From: Escherichia coli
Lineage (GTDB): Bacteria; Pseudomonadota; Gammaproteobacteria; Enterobacterales; Enterobacteriaceae
DNA: 64,000 bases
Strand: one strand, 5' to 3'
Assembly: GCF_050920415.1 (NCBI RefSeq)
Contig: NZ_CP169309.1
Shown: positions 21,464-59,196 of the stretch, one piece after another
How positions within the stretch are numbered: position 1 is the stretch's first letter
Layout: each line of letters opens with the position of its first letter
Notes under the pieces: model-generated
What the model was told of the DNA's origin: nothing
What the model saw: the letters and a program-made list of their open reading frames with translations, nothing else
Databases searched by the model: none
Program-made: the position numbers and the translations under genes

Positions 21464-22219
<756 letters not shown>

Positions 22220-22264
22220 TTTTTACCGTTGCATCATGTCGCCCAATATGATGCTTGCTCGTAC

Positions 22265-22298
22265 CAGGCCCCTGCAATTTCAACAGGGGCCTTTTTTT
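22265..22298 (+). terminator. Rho-independent terminator after cutC
   Basis: AGGCCCCTG...CAGGGGCCT hairpin followed by TTTTTTTAT. Confidence 0.7.
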
Positions 22299-43881: not shown

Positions 43882-44037
43882 TGCACAGAAAACCCCCAGC
43901 TAGGCTGGGGGTTCCGGAAAGCTTTCAGCTTTGAGCCAGTTATTAAAACCCCTTTTGATTTGTTAAAACACCTTGCGGTCTGGCAACTTCTTAACTCACT
44001 TATTGTTTCCACCCATGTTTTTGGATACCTGCTGTAG

Positions 44038-44074
44038 CTGTCAGATTAGCGCGATAATCTGACAGCTTTTTTTT
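44038..44074 (+). terminator. Strong rho-independent terminator
   Basis: 11-bp stem CTGTCAGATTA...TAATCTGACAG followed by T8. Confidence 0.75.
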
Positions 44075-44363
44075 ACAACGAATCCTTCTGATCTGCTTTT
44101 GCGGGGCTTTTTTGTATCCGCTCCATGCCCGGCGTATAAGCGGAGGTTGGTCAGTTTTCTAAAAATTGAAATACCTCACAATTCAGCCAGTTAATGGTTG
44201 TTTGTCTGGCGAAGAGTTTGTAAATAAAAAAACGCATGGTGAATCCCCCTAAGCGGCGGGGCGAATCAGCAGTCAGTTCTGGGATAATCGCGGGTTCGTA
44301 TGCTGATGCCGGACTCACCGGGAGGCACCCGGCACCATGCATCATGGTCATCCCCTTGTATGA

Positions 44364-44389
44364 TACCCCTCTCCGGAGGGGTATTTTTT
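44364..44389 (+). terminator. Rho-independent terminator
   Basis: TACCCCTC-tccg-GAGGGGTA followed by TTTTTT. Confidence 0.7.
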
Positions 44390-44822
44390 GGATAAAAAAG
44401 CCCGCGCTGGGAGGCACGGGCGGCAAGGAATAAAACGTGAAGAAATTTTCACAGGCGCATAATAATCCGATGTTGCCAGATTTTGCAACTGCATCATCTG
44501 GTTATTATGTGAGCTGGAAAATCAGATTCTGTATGGACTGAAGCCATGCTGTTATTCAGGGCCAAAGAACGGACTTTTTCTTCCGCCTTTCAGGTAACGA
44601 TTAATGAGAAAAAGACTGAAATGCCCCCTCGGGGAGGAGGATAGTAGAAAAAAGAACCCGCCAGCAAAAATATTGGGGGGATGAACAGCTTTCGCTACTC
44701 TGGTTGCTGGCGGGTATAGCTCCTCATGAATAAGAATGTCGCGGTATTTTTTAATGGAAATGAGAATCATTGTCAACTGATTGCGTGTGTTGTCTTCATA
44801 CATGACTGGTAAAGGTGATTCA

Positions 44823-49490: not shown

Positions 49491-50731
49491 TGTTTTTCCA
49501 GGGGCTTTTTCAACGTAAAAATAATACCCCCGTCACAACGCCCGGGATGCTTGCGGAAGAACTTGGGTTGTCATACGACACCTATACCGGAAAGCGGATC
49601 AGCAGTCAGCGGGCCATGCGGCTGACGGCGGTGTATTCCTGCGTCAGGGTGCTGGCGGAGTCTGTTGGTATGCTGCCCTGCAGCCTCTACAAAATCACCG
49701 GCACTCTTAAAACACGGGCAGTGGATGAACGACTGCATAAGCTGATTTCGGCAAAACCCAATGGCTACATGACACCGCAGGAATTCTGGGAGCTGGTTAT
49801 CGTCTGCCTGTGTCTGCGGGGTAATTTTTACGCTTACAAGGTGAAGGCGCTGGGAGAAGTGGTGGAGCTTCTTCCTATAGATCCGGGATGTGTGGAGCCG
49901 AAGCTGAACTGTCAGTGGCAGCCGGTTTATCAGGTGACATTTCCGGATGGTTCTGTGGATGTGCTGACTCAGGATGAAATCTGGCATGTGCGTACTCTGA
50001 CGCTGGACGGACTGGTCGGGCTGAATCCCATTGCGTATGCGCGTGAGGCCATTTCACTGGCAGCGGCAACCGAGGAGCACGGTGCCAGGTTGTTTGGCAA
50101 CGGTGCAGTGACATCCGGTGTGTTGCGTACGGATCAACAACTTTCTGATCAGGCTTATGCGCGTATCAAAAAGGATTTTGAGGAACGGCATGTCGGGCTG
50201 GGAAATTCTCATCGTCCGATGATTCTGGAAATGGGGCTGGACTGGAAAACGGTGGCACTGAATGCCGAGGACAGCCAGTTCCTGGAAACCCGCAAGTTTC
50301 AGCTGGAAGAAATCTGTCGCCTGTTCCGCGTGCCGCTGCATATGGTGCAGAACACCGATCGCGCCACCTTCAACAATATTGAAGAGCTGGGGCTTGGTTT
50401 CATTAACTATTCCCTTGTGCCGTATCTGACCCGTATTGAGCAACGGATCAATACAGGGCTGGTCAGGGAGAGCAAGCAGGGGAAGTTTTACGCCAAATTT
50501 AATGCCGGAGCATTGTTGCGTGGCGACATGAAATCCCGCTTTGAAGCGTATGCCACGGGGATCAACTGGGGGATTTATTCCCCTAATGACTGCCGTGATC
50601 TGGAAGATATGAATCCCAGACCGGGTGGTGATGTGTATCTGACACCGATGAACATGACCACCAGTCCCTCTGCTGGCGATGACAACGGTAAGAAAAAGGA
50701 GAGTGGAGATGCAGACAAAACAGCGTCTTGA
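49490..50731 (+). CDS. Portal protein (HK97-family)
   Basis: 413 aa; position after the terminase. Confidence 0.8.
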   Translation: MFFQGLFQRKNNTPVTTPGMLAEELGLSYDTYTGKRISSQRAMRLTAVYSCVRVLAESVGMLPCSLYKITGTLKTRAVDERLHKLISAKPNGYMTPQEFWELVIVCLCLRGNFYAYKVKALGEVVELLPIDPGCVEPKLNCQWQPVYQVTFPDGSVDVLTQDEIWHVRTLTLDGLVGLNPIAYAREAISLAAATEEHGARLFGNGAVTSGVLRTDQQLSDQAYARIKKDFEERHVGLGNSHRPMILEMGLDWKTVALNAEDSQFLETRKFQLEEICRLFRVPLHMVQNTDRATFNNIEELGLGFINYSLVPYLTRIEQRINTGLVRESKQGKFYAKFNAGALLRGDMKSRFEAYATGINWGIYSPNDCRDLEDMNPRPGGDVYLTPMNMTTSPSAGDDNGKKKESGDADKTAS

Positions 50732-51359
50732 TATACCGCTGAACCTGAAATCCGTCAGTGATTCCGGGGAATTTGAAGGTTACGGTTCTGTTTTTGGTGT
50801 TAAGGACAGCCACGATGATGTGGTGGTCCCCGGTGCCTTTACCACAACACTCCAGAAATGGAGCGAAAAAAAGGCGCTGCCTGCGTTGCTCTGGCAGCAC
50901 CGCATGGATGAGCCCATCGGTGTGTACACCGAAATGAAAGAAGATGATGTCGGGCTTTATGTCAGGGGGCGATTACTCGTTGATGATGATCCCCTGGCAA
51001 AACGTGCACATGCCCATATGAAGGCCGGTTCTTTAACCGGCCTTTCTATTGGCTACATCCTGAAAGACTGGGAGTACGACCGTGAAAAAGGGGTATTCCT
51101 GCTGAAAGAGATCGACTTGTGGGAGGTCAGTCTGGTGACGTTTCCTTCCAATGATGAGGCACGCATCAGCGATGTGAAAAATGCGCTGGCGCGTGGGGAG
51201 ATCCCTGATCAGAAAATTATTGAGCGAGTCCTGCGCGATGTTGGACTCTCGCGAACCCAGGCCAAAGCATTCATGGCCGGGGGATATGGCGCTTTATCCC
51301 TGCGTGATGCTGAGGATGTGGATGCCGCACTGAATGCACTGAAAAATCTTAAATTTTAA
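50709..51359 (+). CDS. Prohead maturation protease (HK97-family)
   Basis: MQTKQRLDIPLNLKSVSDSGEFEGYGSVFGVKDSHDDVVVPGAF...; AGGAG RBS; overlaps the portal 3' end. Confidence 0.8.
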   Translation: MQTKQRLDIPLNLKSVSDSGEFEGYGSVFGVKDSHDDVVVPGAFTTTLQKWSEKKALPALLWQHRMDEPIGVYTEMKEDDVGLYVRGRLLVDDDPLAKRAHAHMKAGSLTGLSIGYILKDWEYDREKGVFLLKEIDLWEVSLVTFPSNDEARISDVKNALARGEIPDQKIIERVLRDVGLSRTQAKAFMAGGYGALSLRDAEDVDAALNALKNLKF

Positions 51360-54111: not shown

Positions 54112-54140
54112 CCACCCGCCGCTGGCGGGTTTTTTTATTT
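54112..54140 (+). terminator. Terminator/attenuator upstream of the major tail protein gene
   Basis: ACCCGCC-gctg-GCGGGT followed by TTTTTTTATTTT. Confidence 0.6.
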
Positions 54141-54153
54141 TCAGGAGACGAGT

Positions 54154-54858
54154 ATGTCCTCTAATTTTGAGCGTTCGCAACTGACGAAAATTATGATTTC
54201 GTCTGCACCGGTAACAGCAGAAACCCTGGATTCTGCCAGCTATCTTGGCCTGAGCTGTACAATCAAAGAGGTGCAGTTTACCGCAGGACAAAAGCAGGAT
54301 ATTGATGTCACCACGCTGTGTTCTGTTGAGCAGGAAAATATTAACGGTCTTGGTGCCGCGTCAGAGATTTCCATGTCAGGCAACTTTTACCTCAATGCTG
54401 CCCAGAACGCGTTGCGCAGTGCCTATGACAATGACACCACGTATGGCTTTAAAGTTATTTTTCCGTCAGGAAACGGATTTACCTTTATGGCAGAGGTGCG
54501 TCAGCATACCTGGTCTGCAGGAACCAATGGTGTTGTGGCTGCAACGTTTTCCCTGCGCCTGAAAGGTAAACCTGTGCTGACGACAGAGCCGCTGAAAGTG
54601 AAGGTCGATTTAAACAGCACGCTGCAGGTTTCTGCCGGAGCGAAACTCGAAATGGTGGTTGAGGCTGCCGGTGGTGTGCCGCCTTATTCTTATGTCTGGA
54701 AGAAAGGTAGTTCTCCTGTTTCCGGACAGACGGCGGCAACGTTCAGTAAGGCATTGGCAGTATCCGGTGATGCGGGCGCATATACCTGCGAGATTTCTGA
54801 TTCAGCAAGCCCGGTTAACAAAGTGACCTCCACTTCCTGCACTGTAACCGTCAGTTAA
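54154..54858 (+). CDS. Major tail protein with C-terminal Ig-like domain
   Basis: 234 aa; C-terminal Ig-like segment (VSAGAKLEMVVEAAGGVPPYSYVWKKGSSPVSGQTAATFSK). Confidence 0.75.
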   Translation: MSSNFERSQLTKIMISSAPVTAETLDSASYLGLSCTIKEVQFTAGQKQDIDVTTLCSVEQENINGLGAASEISMSGNFYLNAAQNALRSAYDNDTTYGFKVIFPSGNGFTFMAEVRQHTWSAGTNGVVAATFSLRLKGKPVLTTEPLKVKVDLNSTLQVSAGAKLEMVVEAAGGVPPYSYVWKKGSSPVSGQTAATFSKALAVSGDAGAYTCEISDSASPVNKVTSTSCTVTVS

Positions 54859-55244
54859 TGAGGATGGGTGTGATGACTAAAAATATCCGTAATCTGGCTC
54901 TGGCAACGATGTCGGGGTTTCGCCATAAAACTGTTGATGTGCCTGAATGGGAAGGGGCAACGGTTGTATTACGGGAACCTTCTGCAGAAGCCTGGTTGCG
55001 CTGGCAGGAGATCGTTAAAGCAAAAGATGATGAGACACCGTTATCCGTTGCGGAGCGCGCCCGCCGAAATCTGGAGGCAGATGTTGAACTGTTCATTGAT
55101 GTTCTGTGTGATACCGGACTGCAACCTGTATTTTCAGAGGATGATCGTGAACAGGTGATTGCCGTGTATGGCCCGGTGCATGCGCGGCTTCTTCGGCAGT
55201 CTCTGGAACTGATCAGTGATGCCGGCGAGGTTAAAAAAAAGTAG
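54858..55244 (+). CDS. Tail assembly chaperone (G-like)
   Basis: 128 aa immediately upstream of the tape measure region; ends at a slippery A-run. Confidence 0.75.
   Translation: MRMGVMTKNIRNLALATMSGFRHKTVDVPEWEGATVVLREPSAEAWLRWQEIVKAKDDETPLSVAERARRNLEADVELFIDVLCDTGLQPVFSEDDREQVIAVYGPVHARLLRQSLELISDAGEVKKK
55235..55241 (+). other. Programmed -1 ribosomal frameshift slippery site
   Basis: A AAA AAG heptamer within an 8-A run 1 codon before the G stop; downstream ORF is in the -1 frame. Confidence 0.7.
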
Positions 55245-55255
55245 CGCTTCCGGGG

Positions 55256-55546
55256 ATGCGTTTTCTGATGATGCTGGCACTCAGGATGGGGCGCACATTG
55301 TCAGAGTTACGCCGGGAAATGTCCGCATCAGAAATCATGATGTGGGCAGAATTTGACAGGTTCAGCCCGCTGGGGGACGAACGGGCTGATATCCGGGCTG
55401 CCCAGATTGTTTCAGCTGTTTACGGTGCGCAGGGTGTCAAAGTACCACTGAATGATGCGCTTCTTCAGTGGGAGCATGAATCAGAAGAAAATAAATGCGA
55501 TGATCCATTTATTGGATTAGAGGTTGCTCTAATGTCTTCACTATAA
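55256..55546 (+). CDS. T-domain of the frameshifted tail assembly chaperone (GT-like extension)
   Basis: ORF in the -1 frame relative to G, no independent RBS. Confidence 0.65.
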   Translation: MRFLMMLALRMGRTLSELRREMSASEIMMWAEFDRFSPLGDERADIRAAQIVSAVYGAQGVKVPLNDALLQWEHESEENKCDDPFIGLEVALMSSL

Positions 55547-55604
55547 GATAATTTTTTAATCGTTTTGAAATTGAATGCTTTACTCAAAGTCAGGAGGATT
55601 AATC

Positions 55605-55946
55605 ATGAGAAAATCAGTGGTGACATTAGCTTGTTTGTTTTTTATTAGTGCATGTAAGCCATCAGATAATTATGTTATTTCTTTAGGGGAAAACTTAGTT
55701 AAAGATAAGCTTATTGATCCTGATAGTGCAAAATTTAATTCTTTTTTTCATAAGTCAGGTGATTTATATGGTTATGTTTGTGGTGATGTTAATTCAAAAA
55801 ACACGTTTGGTGGATATACAGGGAAAAAGCCATATTTTGTTTATTTGGAAGTTGTGGATGGAAAAGTTAAGAGTCATGGGACTGTAACAATTGTTAATGA
55901 TCATGATCCAAGCAGTATGGAAAAATATAAGTTGTTTTGCCAATAA
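55605..55946 (+). CDS. Low-GC lipoprotein moron (113 aa)
   Basis: GGAGG RBS; signal peptide with lipobox MRKSVVTLACLFFISAC; strong AT bias relative to flanking tail genes. Confidence 0.7.
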   Translation: MRKSVVTLACLFFISACKPSDNYVISLGENLVKDKLIDPDSAKFNSFFHKSGDLYGYVCGDVNSKNTFGGYTGKKPYFVYLEVVDGKVKSHGTVTIVNDHDPSSMEKYKLFCQ

Positions 55947-55955
55947 TTATCATCT

Positions 55956-55983
55956 TAAAAAACCGCAGAAGCGGTTTTTTTAT
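55956..55983 (+). terminator. Rho-independent terminator after the lipoprotein moron
   Basis: AACCGC-agaa-GCGGTT followed by TTTTTTT. Confidence 0.7.
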
Positions 55984-55995
55984 GGGGTAAAGTAA

Positions 55996-58900
55996 ATGGC
56001 GACATTACGTGAGCTGATTATTAAAATCTCGGCAAATTCCCGGTCATTCCAGTCAGAGATCTCCCGGGCTTCGCGTATGGGGCAGGATTACTACCGTACC
56101 ATGCAGAACGGAGGCCGGCAGTCCGCTGCTGCATCCCGTGAAATGCGGCGTGCACTGGCAGAAGTGACGGATCAGATAAATACAGCTAAATCTTCGGCAC
56201 TGAATATGGCGGGGGCATTTGCCGGGGCTTTTGCTACCGGTCATCTTATTTCTCTCGCCGATGAGTGGAATTCAGTAAATGCCCGTCTGAAGCAGGCCTC
56301 ACAGTCCACTGATGATTTTCAGGTATCACAACGTGAATTAATGGCAATCAGCCAGAGAACGGGAACGGCGTTTTCTGATAACGCCAGCCTTTTTGCCCGC
56401 TCTGCAGCTTCCATGCGGGAGTATGGCTACAGTTCTGAGGAGGTACTGAAAGTCACCGAGGCTATCTCCACGGGCCTGAAATTATCCGGTGCCAGTGCAG
56501 CAGAAGCCAGTTCGGTGATCACGCAGTTCAGTCAGGCACTGGCGCAGGGAGTGCTGCGCGGTGAAGAATTTAACTCTGTGAATGAGAACGGCGATCGTGT
56601 TATTCGTGCGCTGGCTGCGGGAATGGGTGTTGCCCGTAAGGATCTGAAGGCCATGGCGGATAACGGAAAGTTGACCGCCGATAAGGTTGTTCCTGCACTG
56701 ATTAGTCAGCTTGGGGCGTTGCGTGATGAATATGCAGCAATGCCTGATACGGTTTCATCCTCTGCAACCAAAGTTGAAAACGCCTTTATGGCCTGGGTTG
56801 GTGGTGCGAACGAAGCAAGCGGAGTGACGAAGACGCTCTCCGGTGTGCTGAATGGTATTGCAGGCAATATTGACACTGTGGCAACCGCTGCCGGTGCTCT
56901 GGTTGCCGTCGGGGTAGCCCGATATTTTGGCAATATGGCATCTTCTGCTGGATCTGCAACTGCCGGATTAATTACTGCAGCCAGAAACGAAGTAGCTCTT
57001 GCGGAAGCGCAGCTCCGGGGGACGCAGATAGCAACCGCCAGGGCGCGTGCGGCGGTTTATCGTGCGCAACAGGCGGTCGCGGCTACCCGTGGTACTGAAA
57101 GACAGGCAGCCGCAGAAGCGAAACTGGCTGCTGCCCAGGCATCACTTACCCGTAATATTGCGGCCAGAACAGCAGCACAGACAACGCTGAATACTGTCAC
57201 GTCAGTGGGGAGTCGTTTATTAAGTGGTGCGCTGGGGCTGGTTGGTGGTGTGCCGGGACTCGTCATGCTGGGGGCGACGGCCTGGTACACGATGTATCAG
57301 AATCAGGAGCAGGCCAGAGAATCTGCACGCCAGTATGCCGCAACAATCGACGAAATTCGCCAGAAAACGTCGGCAATGTCGCTTCCTGAAGCGTCAGATA
57401 ATGAGGAAAAGACGCGGCAGGCACTGGAGGAACAAAATCGCCTGATTAACGAACAGGAAGGAAAAATTCGCGGACTGAAAAATCAAATTGCTGATTATCA
57501 ACGTTGGCTTGATGAAAGTTCGCAGAGTGGTTCTGGTGCTGAAATCATCCTTAAAGGGCTTGCAGAAGCAACAAATCAACTGGCAGTTGAACAGTCCCGT
57601 CTCACACAAATGCAGGGCAAAGCGCAATCCATTCAGGATGTGCTTGCCGGGCTGGAGGAGCGACGAGTGGCGTTGATCCGTCAACAGGCAGCGGAACAAA
57701 ACAAAGCGTATCAGTCCCTGTTGATCATGAATGGGAAGCATACCGAGTTTAATCGCCTTCTCGGGCTTGGTAATGAATTACTTCAGCAGCGACAGGGGCT
57801 GGTGAATGTACCGTTACGGCTACCACAGGCAACTCTGGATGATAAACAGCAGACCGCACTGAATAACAGCAAGCGCGAACTGGCTCTGTCCCGCCTTAAG
57901 GGGGAAGCGCGTGAGCGTGCCCGACTGGGCTATGCTGCGGATGATCTCGGCTTTGTGGGAGAGGCGTATCGGACAGCCAGACAGAATTATATCAATAACT
58001 CACTGGATGCCTGGCGAAATAACCAGGCAAATAAACCCAAAGCGCATAAAAAGACCGAAGCGGAAAAAACAGAAGATATTTATAAACGGCTGATTAAACA
58101 GCAAAAAGAACAGATAGCACTGGCAGGGCAGAATACTGAACTGGCTAAGATGAAATATCAGGTCAGTCAGGGCGAATTATCAACCCTGTCAGAAGCGCAG
58201 AAAAAAACGCTTTTGCAGAATGCAGCACTCATCGACCAGAAAAAGATTCGTGAGCAGCTTGCCGCGTATGAAAGCAGTCTGGCGGACAGTAATGCCAGTG
58301 CCCGGGCATCTGACGACGCGCAGTTGCTGGGATATGGTGAAGGCTCACGGATGCGTGAACGACTCCAGGAAATGTGGAGTATCCGGCATGAGTTTGAGCA
58401 GAAAAATAACGAGCTGCTGAGACAGTATCAGGCCGGAGAAATTGAAGAAGCCCTGTGGAAACAGGAGAAAGAACTGAATAAAAAATATCTGGAAGAGCGT
58501 CTCAGCGATCAGCAGGATTATTATGCAAAGGCCGATGCTTTACGTAATAACTGGAATGCCGGACTCCAGGAGGGACTGACCAACTGGGCAGACAGTGCCA
58601 CCGATTATGCTTCACAGGCGGCAGATGCTGTTGTTTCCACGATGGACGGGCTGGTATCAAATATTTCCGATGCACTGGCCGGGAATGTTGTGGAGTGGAG
58701 GAACTGGGGGAGTTCAGTTCTCCGGGAAGTTTCAAAAATTCTGATGAATGCGGCCATTGTTAACGGACTGAAGTCACTCTCCGGTGCCGGAGGGTGGCTT
58801 GGTACGGTCGGCGGATGGATTTCGGGGGCGGTGGCAAACGCAAAAGGTGGTGTTTACACATCGGCAAATCTGAGTGCTTACAGTAACACTATTGTGGATA

Positions 58901-59196
58901 CACCGACGTATTTTGCTTTTGCGAAAGGTGCCGGGCTGATGGGCGAGGCCGGGCCTGAAGCTATCATGCCACTGACACGGGCAGCGGACGGCTCTCTTGG
59001 GGTCAGGGCCATTGGCAATGTGAATGGTGGCGGTGGATTTGTTTATTCTCCCGTGTATCACATTAGCATTCAGAATCAAGGGAGCAATGGCGAGATAGAT
59101 ACGCGCTCAGCCAGGGGACTGGTGGATCTGATCGACAGCAGGGTTGTGTCAATTATGCAGTCATCGCGTCGGGATGGAGGATTATACAGTGCCTGA
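55996..59196 (+). CDS. Tail tape measure protein
   Basis: 1066 aa, alpha-helical, Ala/Gln-rich repeats; conserved position. Confidence 0.9.
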   Translation: MATLRELIIKISANSRSFQSEISRASRMGQDYYRTMQNGGRQSAAASREMRRALAEVTDQINTAKSSALNMAGAFAGAFATGHLISLADEWNSVNARLKQASQSTDDFQVSQRELMAISQRTGTAFSDNASLFARSAASMREYGYSSEEVLKVTEAISTGLKLSGASAAEASSVITQFSQALAQGVLRGEEFNSVNENGDRVIRALAAGMGVARKDLKAMADNGKLTADKVVPALISQLGALRDEYAAMPDTVSSSATKVENAFMAWVGGANEASGVTKTLSGVLNGIAGNIDTVATAAGALVAVGVARYFGNMASSAGSATAGLITAARNEVALAEAQLRGTQIATARARAAVYRAQQAVAATRGTERQAAAEAKLAAAQASLTRNIAARTAAQTTLNTVTSVGSRLLSGALGLVGGVPGLVMLGATAWYTMYQNQEQARESARQYAATIDEIRQKTSAMSLPEASDNEEKTRQALEEQNRLINEQEGKIRGLKNQIADYQRWLDESSQSGSGAEIILKGLAEATNQLAVEQSRLTQMQGKAQSIQDVLAGLEERRVALIRQQAAEQNKAYQSLLIMNGKHTEFNRLLGLGNELLQQRQGLVNVPLRLPQATLDDKQQTALNNSKRELALSRLKGEARERARLGYAADDLGFVGEAYRTARQNYINNSLDAWRNNQANKPKAHKKTEAEKTEDIYKRLIKQQKEQIALAGQNTELAKMKYQVSQGELSTLSEAQKKTLLQNAALIDQKKIREQLAAYESSLADSNASARASDDAQLLGYGEGSRMRERLQEMWSIRHEFEQKNNELLRQYQAGEIEEALWKQEKELNKKYLEERLSDQQDYYAKADALRNNWNAGLQEGLTNWADSATDYASQAADAVVSTMDGLVSNISDALAGNVVEWRNWGSSVLREVSKILMNAAIVNGLKSLSGAGGWLGTVGGWISGAVANAKGGVYTSANLSAYSNTIVDTPTYFAFAKGAGLMGEAGPEAIMPLTRAADGSLGVRAIGNVNGGGGFVYSPVYHISIQNQGSNGEIDTRSARGLVDLIDSRVVSIMQSSRRDGGLYSA

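Follow-up and report, generated by a model that had tools for sequence, protein, structure and literature searches.

Within the 64,000 nucleotides of Escherichia coli DNA analyzed here (the window), the junction between two small phage tail genes is, with a probability of about 0.9, the G/GT programmed -1 ribosomal frameshift of an HK97-like (Hendrixvirinae-type) E. coli prophage. A preliminary description of the same DNA had recognized at this position the conserved G/GT frameshift of long-tailed phages, and the protein families, the gene order, the -1 frame, the colinearity with HK97, a comparison with twelve relatives and a homologous reporter cassette all agree with that assignment. Most ribosomes translating 54873-55244 would stop at the TAG at 55242 and release the 123-aa G protein, and a few percent would slip back by one base and continue into GT. 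The contribution of the frameshift would be a fixed low GT:G ratio. We infer that the slip occurs on the ribosome and at an efficiency of ~3-7%, and likewise the part that each of the two products plays in assembly.

The tail module and the two halves of GT

Gene G (54873-55244; like the other tail genes and the elements of the slip site, on the + strand) encodes by standard decoding a tail assembly chaperone of 123 aa that is homologous to HK97 gp13. The protein matches Pfam family PF06222 (Phage_TAC_1) over its full length (positions 1-124 of 124; E 2.4e-58, 195.9 bits against a cut-off of 25), as well as the tail assembly chaperone profile phrog_344 and PDB entry 2ob9, 'Tail assembly chaperone', which is the HK97 gp13 structure (E 4.9e-49). 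Its start is most likely the ATG at 54873, which has the SD sequence GAGGA upstream (-9.0 kcal/mol) and is also the start given by PGAP, in preference to the ATG at 54858, which has no SD sequence. The T segment (55241-55546), beginning VALPGMRFLMMLALRMGRTL..., consists of 101 sense codons in the -1 frame followed by a TAA at 55544-55546. It matches PF06223 (Phage_tail_T, 'Minor tail protein T') with an E value of 3.9e-18 and 66.1 bits (cut-off 25.9), and phrog_337.

When the two parts are fused in silico by a -1 shift after the AAG at 55239-55241, that is, as join(54873..55241, 55241..55546), the result is a GT protein of 224 aa (54873-55546). In this fusion PF06222 and PF06223 both score above their Pfam gathering cut-offs, which served as the threshold for domain membership, and they follow each other in the order G then T. 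No model for GT was found in NCBIfam. The profile phrog_14766 (224 positions) is matched in its first half by G and in its second half by T, which indicates that it was built from already-joined GT proteins. Comparison of the in-silico fusion with known GT proteins had been put forward as a check on the frameshift, and its outcome is favorable: BLASTP aligned the fusion with HK97 GT, here a reconstruction of 224 aa, at 63.7% identity over 223 aa (E 1e-108), and the two are colinear across the junction, without a gap, where GEVKKK/VALPGMRFLMMLALRMGRTLSEL in the window faces DEAREK/VSTPGVKFLMSLALRMGRTLSEL in HK97.

The G/T pair is situated between the major tail and tape measure genes, with an HK97-like head module further upstream. 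The site had been taken to support the tail gene calls, and this support is justified: the site confirms the surrounding genes as an HK97-type tail module. Upstream of G, the major tail tube protein with a C-terminal Ig-like domain (54154-54858) matches the phrog_158 major tail protein (E 1e-107); Ig_2 reaches the Pfam cut-off in this protein, and the Ig_3 and tail tube Pfam matches stay below theirs. Downstream of T, the tape measure protein (55996-59196) matches PF06120 (Phage_HK97_TLTM; E 6e-83), TMP_3 and Tape_meas_lam_C. The 689-bp G/T segment was found in 900 of 5426 complete E. coli genomes, and 897 complete genomes carry most of it at 80-100% identity. Induced phages, among them phi467 and Evi, have it as well. 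Over its last ~70 bp, T differs from the closest induced phages.

Several other features of the module and of the wider window were noted. Just upstream of the major tail gene lies a strong, terminator-like hairpin (54114-54140, + strand; ACCCGCCGCTGGCGGGT and then TTTTTTATTT), a position at which HK97 and HK446 have an annotated rho-independent terminator ahead of the major tail gene. Between T and the tape measure gene is an AT-rich insert of ~0.45 kb (55547-55995), with a GC content of 28-33% against about 53% around it, which occupies the same slot as HK97 gp15, labelled 'moron product' in the HK97 record. The insert occurs in only 17 of the 5426 complete E. coli genomes, compared to 900 with this G/T pair, and the closest induced phages are without it. 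It contains an ORF of 113 aa (55605-55946, + strand) with a strong SD sequence and a lipoprotein-type signal (MRKSVVTLACLFFISAC, lipobox ISAC). This ORF matches phrog_2320, a family of unknown function, and gave no match in Pfam or NCBIfam; its product is a candidate lysogenic-conversion or superinfection-exclusion lipoprotein. Farther away, a match at Rfam gathering level identifies the MicL sRNA (21991-22298), which marks host E. coli chromosome. Rfam also places two tandem pairs of IsrK and C4 antisense RNA (36828-37016 and 37481-37669) in the prophage early region, and STnc490 and STnc100 (43891-44393) upstream of the lysis genes. The window yielded no tRNA genes.

The slip site and the proposed shift

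In the frame of gene G, the local sequence reads ...GGC GAG GTT AAA AAA AAG TAG CGC TTC CGG GGA TGC GTT.... It contains a run of exactly eight A's (55233-55240), the sole A8 run within the window (T8 runs are found at 44067 and 47012), and this run contains the slippery heptamer A AAA AAG (55235-55241), which is in the X XXY YYZ phase with gene G. Both the run and the in-phase heptamer at the end of the G-like ORF had been reported in the preliminary description, and both were confirmed base for base. The TAG stop codon of G (55242-55244) adjoins the 3' end of the heptamer; G had been said to end one codon after the heptamer, of which the ending at the heptamer stands, but there is no sense codon between the heptamer and the TAG. 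Directly 5' of the heptamer, a TAA at 55232-55234 closes the -1 frame. As a consequence, the G and T frames overlap over the 7 nt of the heptamer only, so that the slippery sequence is present, in phase, as the whole of the overlap, and any productive shift is confined to it. From 55235 the -1 frame is open for 103 codons, across the stop codon of G, up to 55546, where it closes with the TAA that ends T; the ORF at 55256-55546 had correctly been placed in the -1 frame, which in fact opens further upstream. The site is a textbook A AAA AAG whose surroundings are unusually compact: the overlap is 7 nt long, and stop codons in both frames bracket it.

We propose a tandem -1 slip at this site, in which two tRNA-Lys, one on AAA 55236-38 in the P site and one on AAG 55239-41 in the A site, would both re-pair with AAA AAA at 55235-40. 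Reading would then resume at GTA GCG CTT... and yield a 224-aa protein, ...GEVKKK-VALPGMRFLMM..., that ends at 55546; the junction peptide expected of GT is ...GEVKKKVALPGMR.... If the proteins act as they do in lambda, the tape measure protein (55996-59196), as presumed partner of the G domain, would be coated by the G parts of both G and GT, and the rare GT would use its T part to recruit the presumed partner of the T domain, the major tail protein (54154-54858).

Elements that could stimulate the slip were sought on both sides of the heptamer. No stimulatory hairpin was detected downstream, where the RNA, folded in four windows here and in three relatives, was no more stable than dinucleotide shuffles (z -0.85 to -0.19 and +0.5). 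A GC-rich hairpin ~33 nt downstream recurs in the HK97 and Stx relatives; it was rejected as a stimulator because it overlaps the conserved LALRxGR codons and is too far from the slip site. The stimulatory SD-like sequence of E. coli dnaX is located about 10 nt 5' of its heptamer. The only SD-like sequence upstream of the heptamer here, GAGG, ends 4 nt 5' of it, and this element was discarded as a dnaX-like stimulator on account of its 4-nt spacing and of the adjoining 5' Gly codon, which varies (GGC/GGT/GGA) among loci that encode an identical G. The combination of an SD-like sequence ~10 nt upstream and a stable 3' hairpin, by which stimulated frameshifting of the dnaX type is recognized, is therefore not seen at this site. 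A bare heptamer beside a stop codon is consistent with a low efficiency, and the missing stimulator gives no positive support to the frameshift.

We also considered how unusual such a motif is within the window. AAAAAAG is present in 26 copies on both strands, compared to 15.5 +/- 4.3 expected from shuffles, and a scan for a heptamer with a nearby stop codon and a long -1 ORF returned ten configurations, which lie mostly at ordinary overlaps between genes or on non-coding strands. The heptamer alone, or the heptamer combined with this ORF geometry, is thus too common to be evidence by itself. An in-phase A AAA AAG occurs five times in long open frames; the -1 extension is 103 codons at the site described here, against 6-23 codons at the other four. 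The prohead protease gene (50679-51359, ...SEKKALP...) holds another in-phase A AAA AAG at 50867-50873 on the + strand. The -1 frame is open there for only 14 codons, so that a slip would merely truncate the protease, and this heptamer is probably incidental.

Conservation among relatives and the origin of T

Relatives of the locus were found by tblastn of G against GenBank phages. Thirteen regions were fetched and twelve relatives were compared, which derive from Escherichia, Klebsiella, Serratia, Halomonas and Burkholderia phages and show a G identity of 28-69%. The T ORF of each of the twelve lies in the -1 frame and extends across the stop codon of G, and at the homologous lysine each has A-AAG or A-AAC as its motif (asparagine takes the place of lysine in the Halomonas phage). 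Fusions made at this homologous Lys codon (at the Asn codon AAC for the Halomonas phage) align from the first post-shift residue, upstream of any ATG; in an alignment of the T parts of nine relatives, the conserved residues after the shift are K/V..PG..FLM.LALR. The C-terminal Lys of G shows no variation across 17 diverse homologues.

The motif itself takes several forms. It is A AAA AAG in the window and in the Stx, Serratia and Burkholderia phages, G GGA AAG in HK542 and A AAA AAC in the Halomonas phage, and it is looser in HK97 (L095 1833-1844), HK446 and SaltyDalty, with CGG GAA AAG, and in the Klebsiella phages (L087/L094 1291-1305), with GCA AAG TAA. These last two forms are not strict X XXY YYZ sequences. 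The A run varies in length from 3 to 9 across the relatives, without conservation, and all that the family shares is A-AAG (A-AAC for the Halomonas phage), which suggests that single-tRNA-Lys or near-cognate slippage may operate in the members with the looser forms. A scan of IMG/VR with the 17-sequence G alignment, from which 80 loci were kept, adds loci that all encode an identical G and serve only to show that the arrangement is invariant: the A8 run, the adjacent TAG and the 103-codon -1 ORF are present in 83 of 83 loci encoding this G (IMG/VR and phage), and nearby synonymous sites vary.

These comparisons bear on the possibility that GT is made mainly by transcriptional slippage. RNA polymerase would then add an A to the run, which is about as long as the RNA:DNA hybrid, and the resulting A9 mRNA, GTT AAA AAA AAA GTA..., would encode an identical protein. 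Known examples of programmed transcriptional slippage include the A9 run of Thermus dnaX and the T9 run of Shigella mxiE. Poly-A runs of more than 7 have been cited as programmed transcriptional realignment sites, and the length of the poly-A run was correlated with the efficiency of frameshifting in magnesium chelatase cassettes (PMC3711429). However, a homopolymer of about nine or more that is conserved as a run, as would be expected for this mechanism, is not what we observe, with a run of 8 here and of 3-9 in the relatives. The -1 arrangement is kept with shorter runs, of 6 A's in the Stx and Burkholderia phages, 4 in HK97 and 3 in HK542 and the Klebsiella phages, which means that the in-phase A-AAG or heptamer is conserved rather than the homopolymer. 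Moreover, the Stx-phage cassette discussed below reaches its reported level of frameshifting with only A6, and in E. coli dnaX it is the ribosome that has been shown to slip at an in-phase A AAA AAG. The short runs in the relatives and the activity of the A6 cassette make transcriptional slippage a minor route at most, and we consider it very unlikely to be the main source of GT; the A8 run is a possible minor site of RNA polymerase slippage. That the run is more than a ribosomal slip site, either by providing a measurable share of GT via A9 or as an A7/A9 hot spot that switches tail production off in lysogens, is an improbable extension of the frameshift reading. Should the A8 run have such an extra role, the stop codons directly 5' (-1 frame) and 3' (0 frame) of the heptamer would restrict the outcomes to one junction.

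Variants in the length of the A tract are found in public assemblies, mostly from Logan (proteins P0001, P0002, P0003, P0004 and P0108). In one class, ...GEVKKSSASGDAF..., a +1-frame read-through gives a protein of 160 aa (54 cluster members), and in another, ...GEVKKVALPGMRF..., G and T are fused. Such run-length variants (P0001, P0002, P0108) could be taken to mean that the split between G and T is accidental, caused by a frameshift mutation or a homopolymer sequencing error in a once-fused gene, or by decay of the prophage. An accident is difficult to reconcile with an A8 run in every one of the 83 loci that have this G, with the occurrence of the segment in 897 complete E. coli genomes, and with a split arrangement that is ancestral to the whole family, and we regard it as hardly credible. 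P0002 and P0108 show further frame errors of the kind typical of noisy reads, so that homopolymer read errors are the likely cause of the variants; real A7/A9 variants may exist.

A different view of the locus is that there is no recoding, and that G and T are separate genes, with T initiated at the ATG at 55268 (or those at 55271 or 55256), perhaps coupled to termination at the TAG at 55242. This is how T appears in RefSeq and in several phage records, as a separate CDS, and an ATG is present within the FLM motif in nearly all relatives. The preliminary description had considered the T ORF to lack its own RBS. This holds for the ATG at 55256, which has no SD sequence (anti-SD duplex of -1.0 kcal/mol), but only in part for the ATGs at 55268 and 55271, which have a weak SD-like GGGGA ~11-14 nt upstream (-5.7 kcal/mol; of all ATGs in the window, 9% are at -6.0 or better and 22% at -4.0 or better). 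The GGGG encodes the conserved Pro-Gly, however, and HK97 and the Klebsiella phages do not retain it at the nucleotide level. Amino-acid conservation begins at the slip site, upstream of every ATG, and the combination of -1 phase and slippery motif, which independent genes do not require, is found in 12/12 relatives. Curated records also list the joined product: the HK97 record (NC_002167) gives gp14 as a two-piece CDS over gp13, 'translated due to a -1 frameshift', and the records of HK446 and of Burkholderia phage Bcep176 ('lambda T equivalent') hold a joined CDS of the same kind. In lambda, T is reportedly made only as GT. Independent initiation of T is unlikely, with the weak GGGGA before 55268/55271 as the room that the sequence leaves for it, and a locus that does without recoding altogether is, in our estimation, highly unlikely.

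Annotation and comparison with known systems

In the RefSeq annotation by PGAP, T is a free-standing CDS from the internal ATG at 55268 (55268-55546; L001 2911-3189), without a ribosomal_slippage join. PGAP-type names for T are 'phage tail assembly protein T' or 'DUF4035 domain-containing protein', and phage record ON470580 splits the region into three CDSs named 'tail assembly chaperone'. RefSeq/PGAP and most phage records of this common E. coli prophage segment thus list G and T as separate, with T starting from an arbitrary internal ATG. With the frameshift as the preferred reading, the correct annotation is a G CDS together with a GT CDS that is joined by ribosomal slippage at 55241. The comparisons support an assignment of the site to the HK97 gp13/gp14 branch of the known G/GT frameshift, a piece of biology that is already known and is unannotated in RefSeq here. 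They add nothing to recoding biology, and their value is practical, for annotation.

The heptamer A AAA AAG is the same as in the E. coli dnaX gene, which encodes tau and gamma, and it is decoded by the same tRNA-Lys. In contrast to the site described here, dnaX owes its frameshift efficiency of about 50% to an SD-like sequence upstream and a hairpin downstream, neither of which is detectable here. The products are also related differently, since the shifted product of dnaX is the shorter one and that of the window is the longer one.

With lambda G/GT, the locus shares its logic, its position in the tail operon and the family of the T domain, PF06223. Lambda differs in its slip site, G GGA AAG, and in a longer overlap between the frames. 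BLASTP of the window fusion against an in-silico lambda GT gave no significant similarity, and lambda G showed none to G of the window, so that the link with lambda is through the Pfam T domain only. We take lambda G to belong to a Pfam family other than PF06222. The programmed -1 frameshift of G/GT is said to be a feature of the long-tailed dsDNA phages. In lambda, tail assembly requires both G and GT, which are made at a ratio of about 30:1; their G parts bind to the tape measure protein, and the T part to the major tail protein (PMC5009743). Neither G nor GT is present in the lambda virion, and conservation of the frameshift extends widely among long-tailed phages (PMC5009743).

With a GST-MBP reporter in E. 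coli, Antonov et al. (2013; PMC3711429) measured the frameshifting of two members of their 'phage tail assembly chaperone' cluster, which comprises 41 genes and resembles HK97. The 'Phage_TAC' cassette from an Stx phage, with AAA AAG TAG, showed 7% -1 frameshifting, and a relative with G GGA AAG (HK542 type) showed 6% +/- 0.61 (PMC3711429 Suppl. Table S2). The string of the 7% cassette is the sequence of our Stx-phage relative (L085). This cassette resembles the window in a homologous G (68% aa identity) and in the A AAA AAG TAG at the same position; it differs in the flanking codons, with GCC AGA before and CCC GCC after, and in an A6 run where the window has A8.

HK97 gp13/gp14 has the same pair of domains, PF06222 and PF06223, in products of 123 and 224 aa, with the shift at the homologous Lys codon, and the genes are in the same order: major tail, G, T, (moron) and tape measure. 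The slip sequence sets the two apart. In HK97, CGG GAA AAG is followed by 5 more sense codons and is not a strict X XXY YYZ sequence, whereas the canonical A AAA AAG of the window is embedded in an A8 run, between a -1 stop codon just upstream and the directly adjacent stop codon of G.
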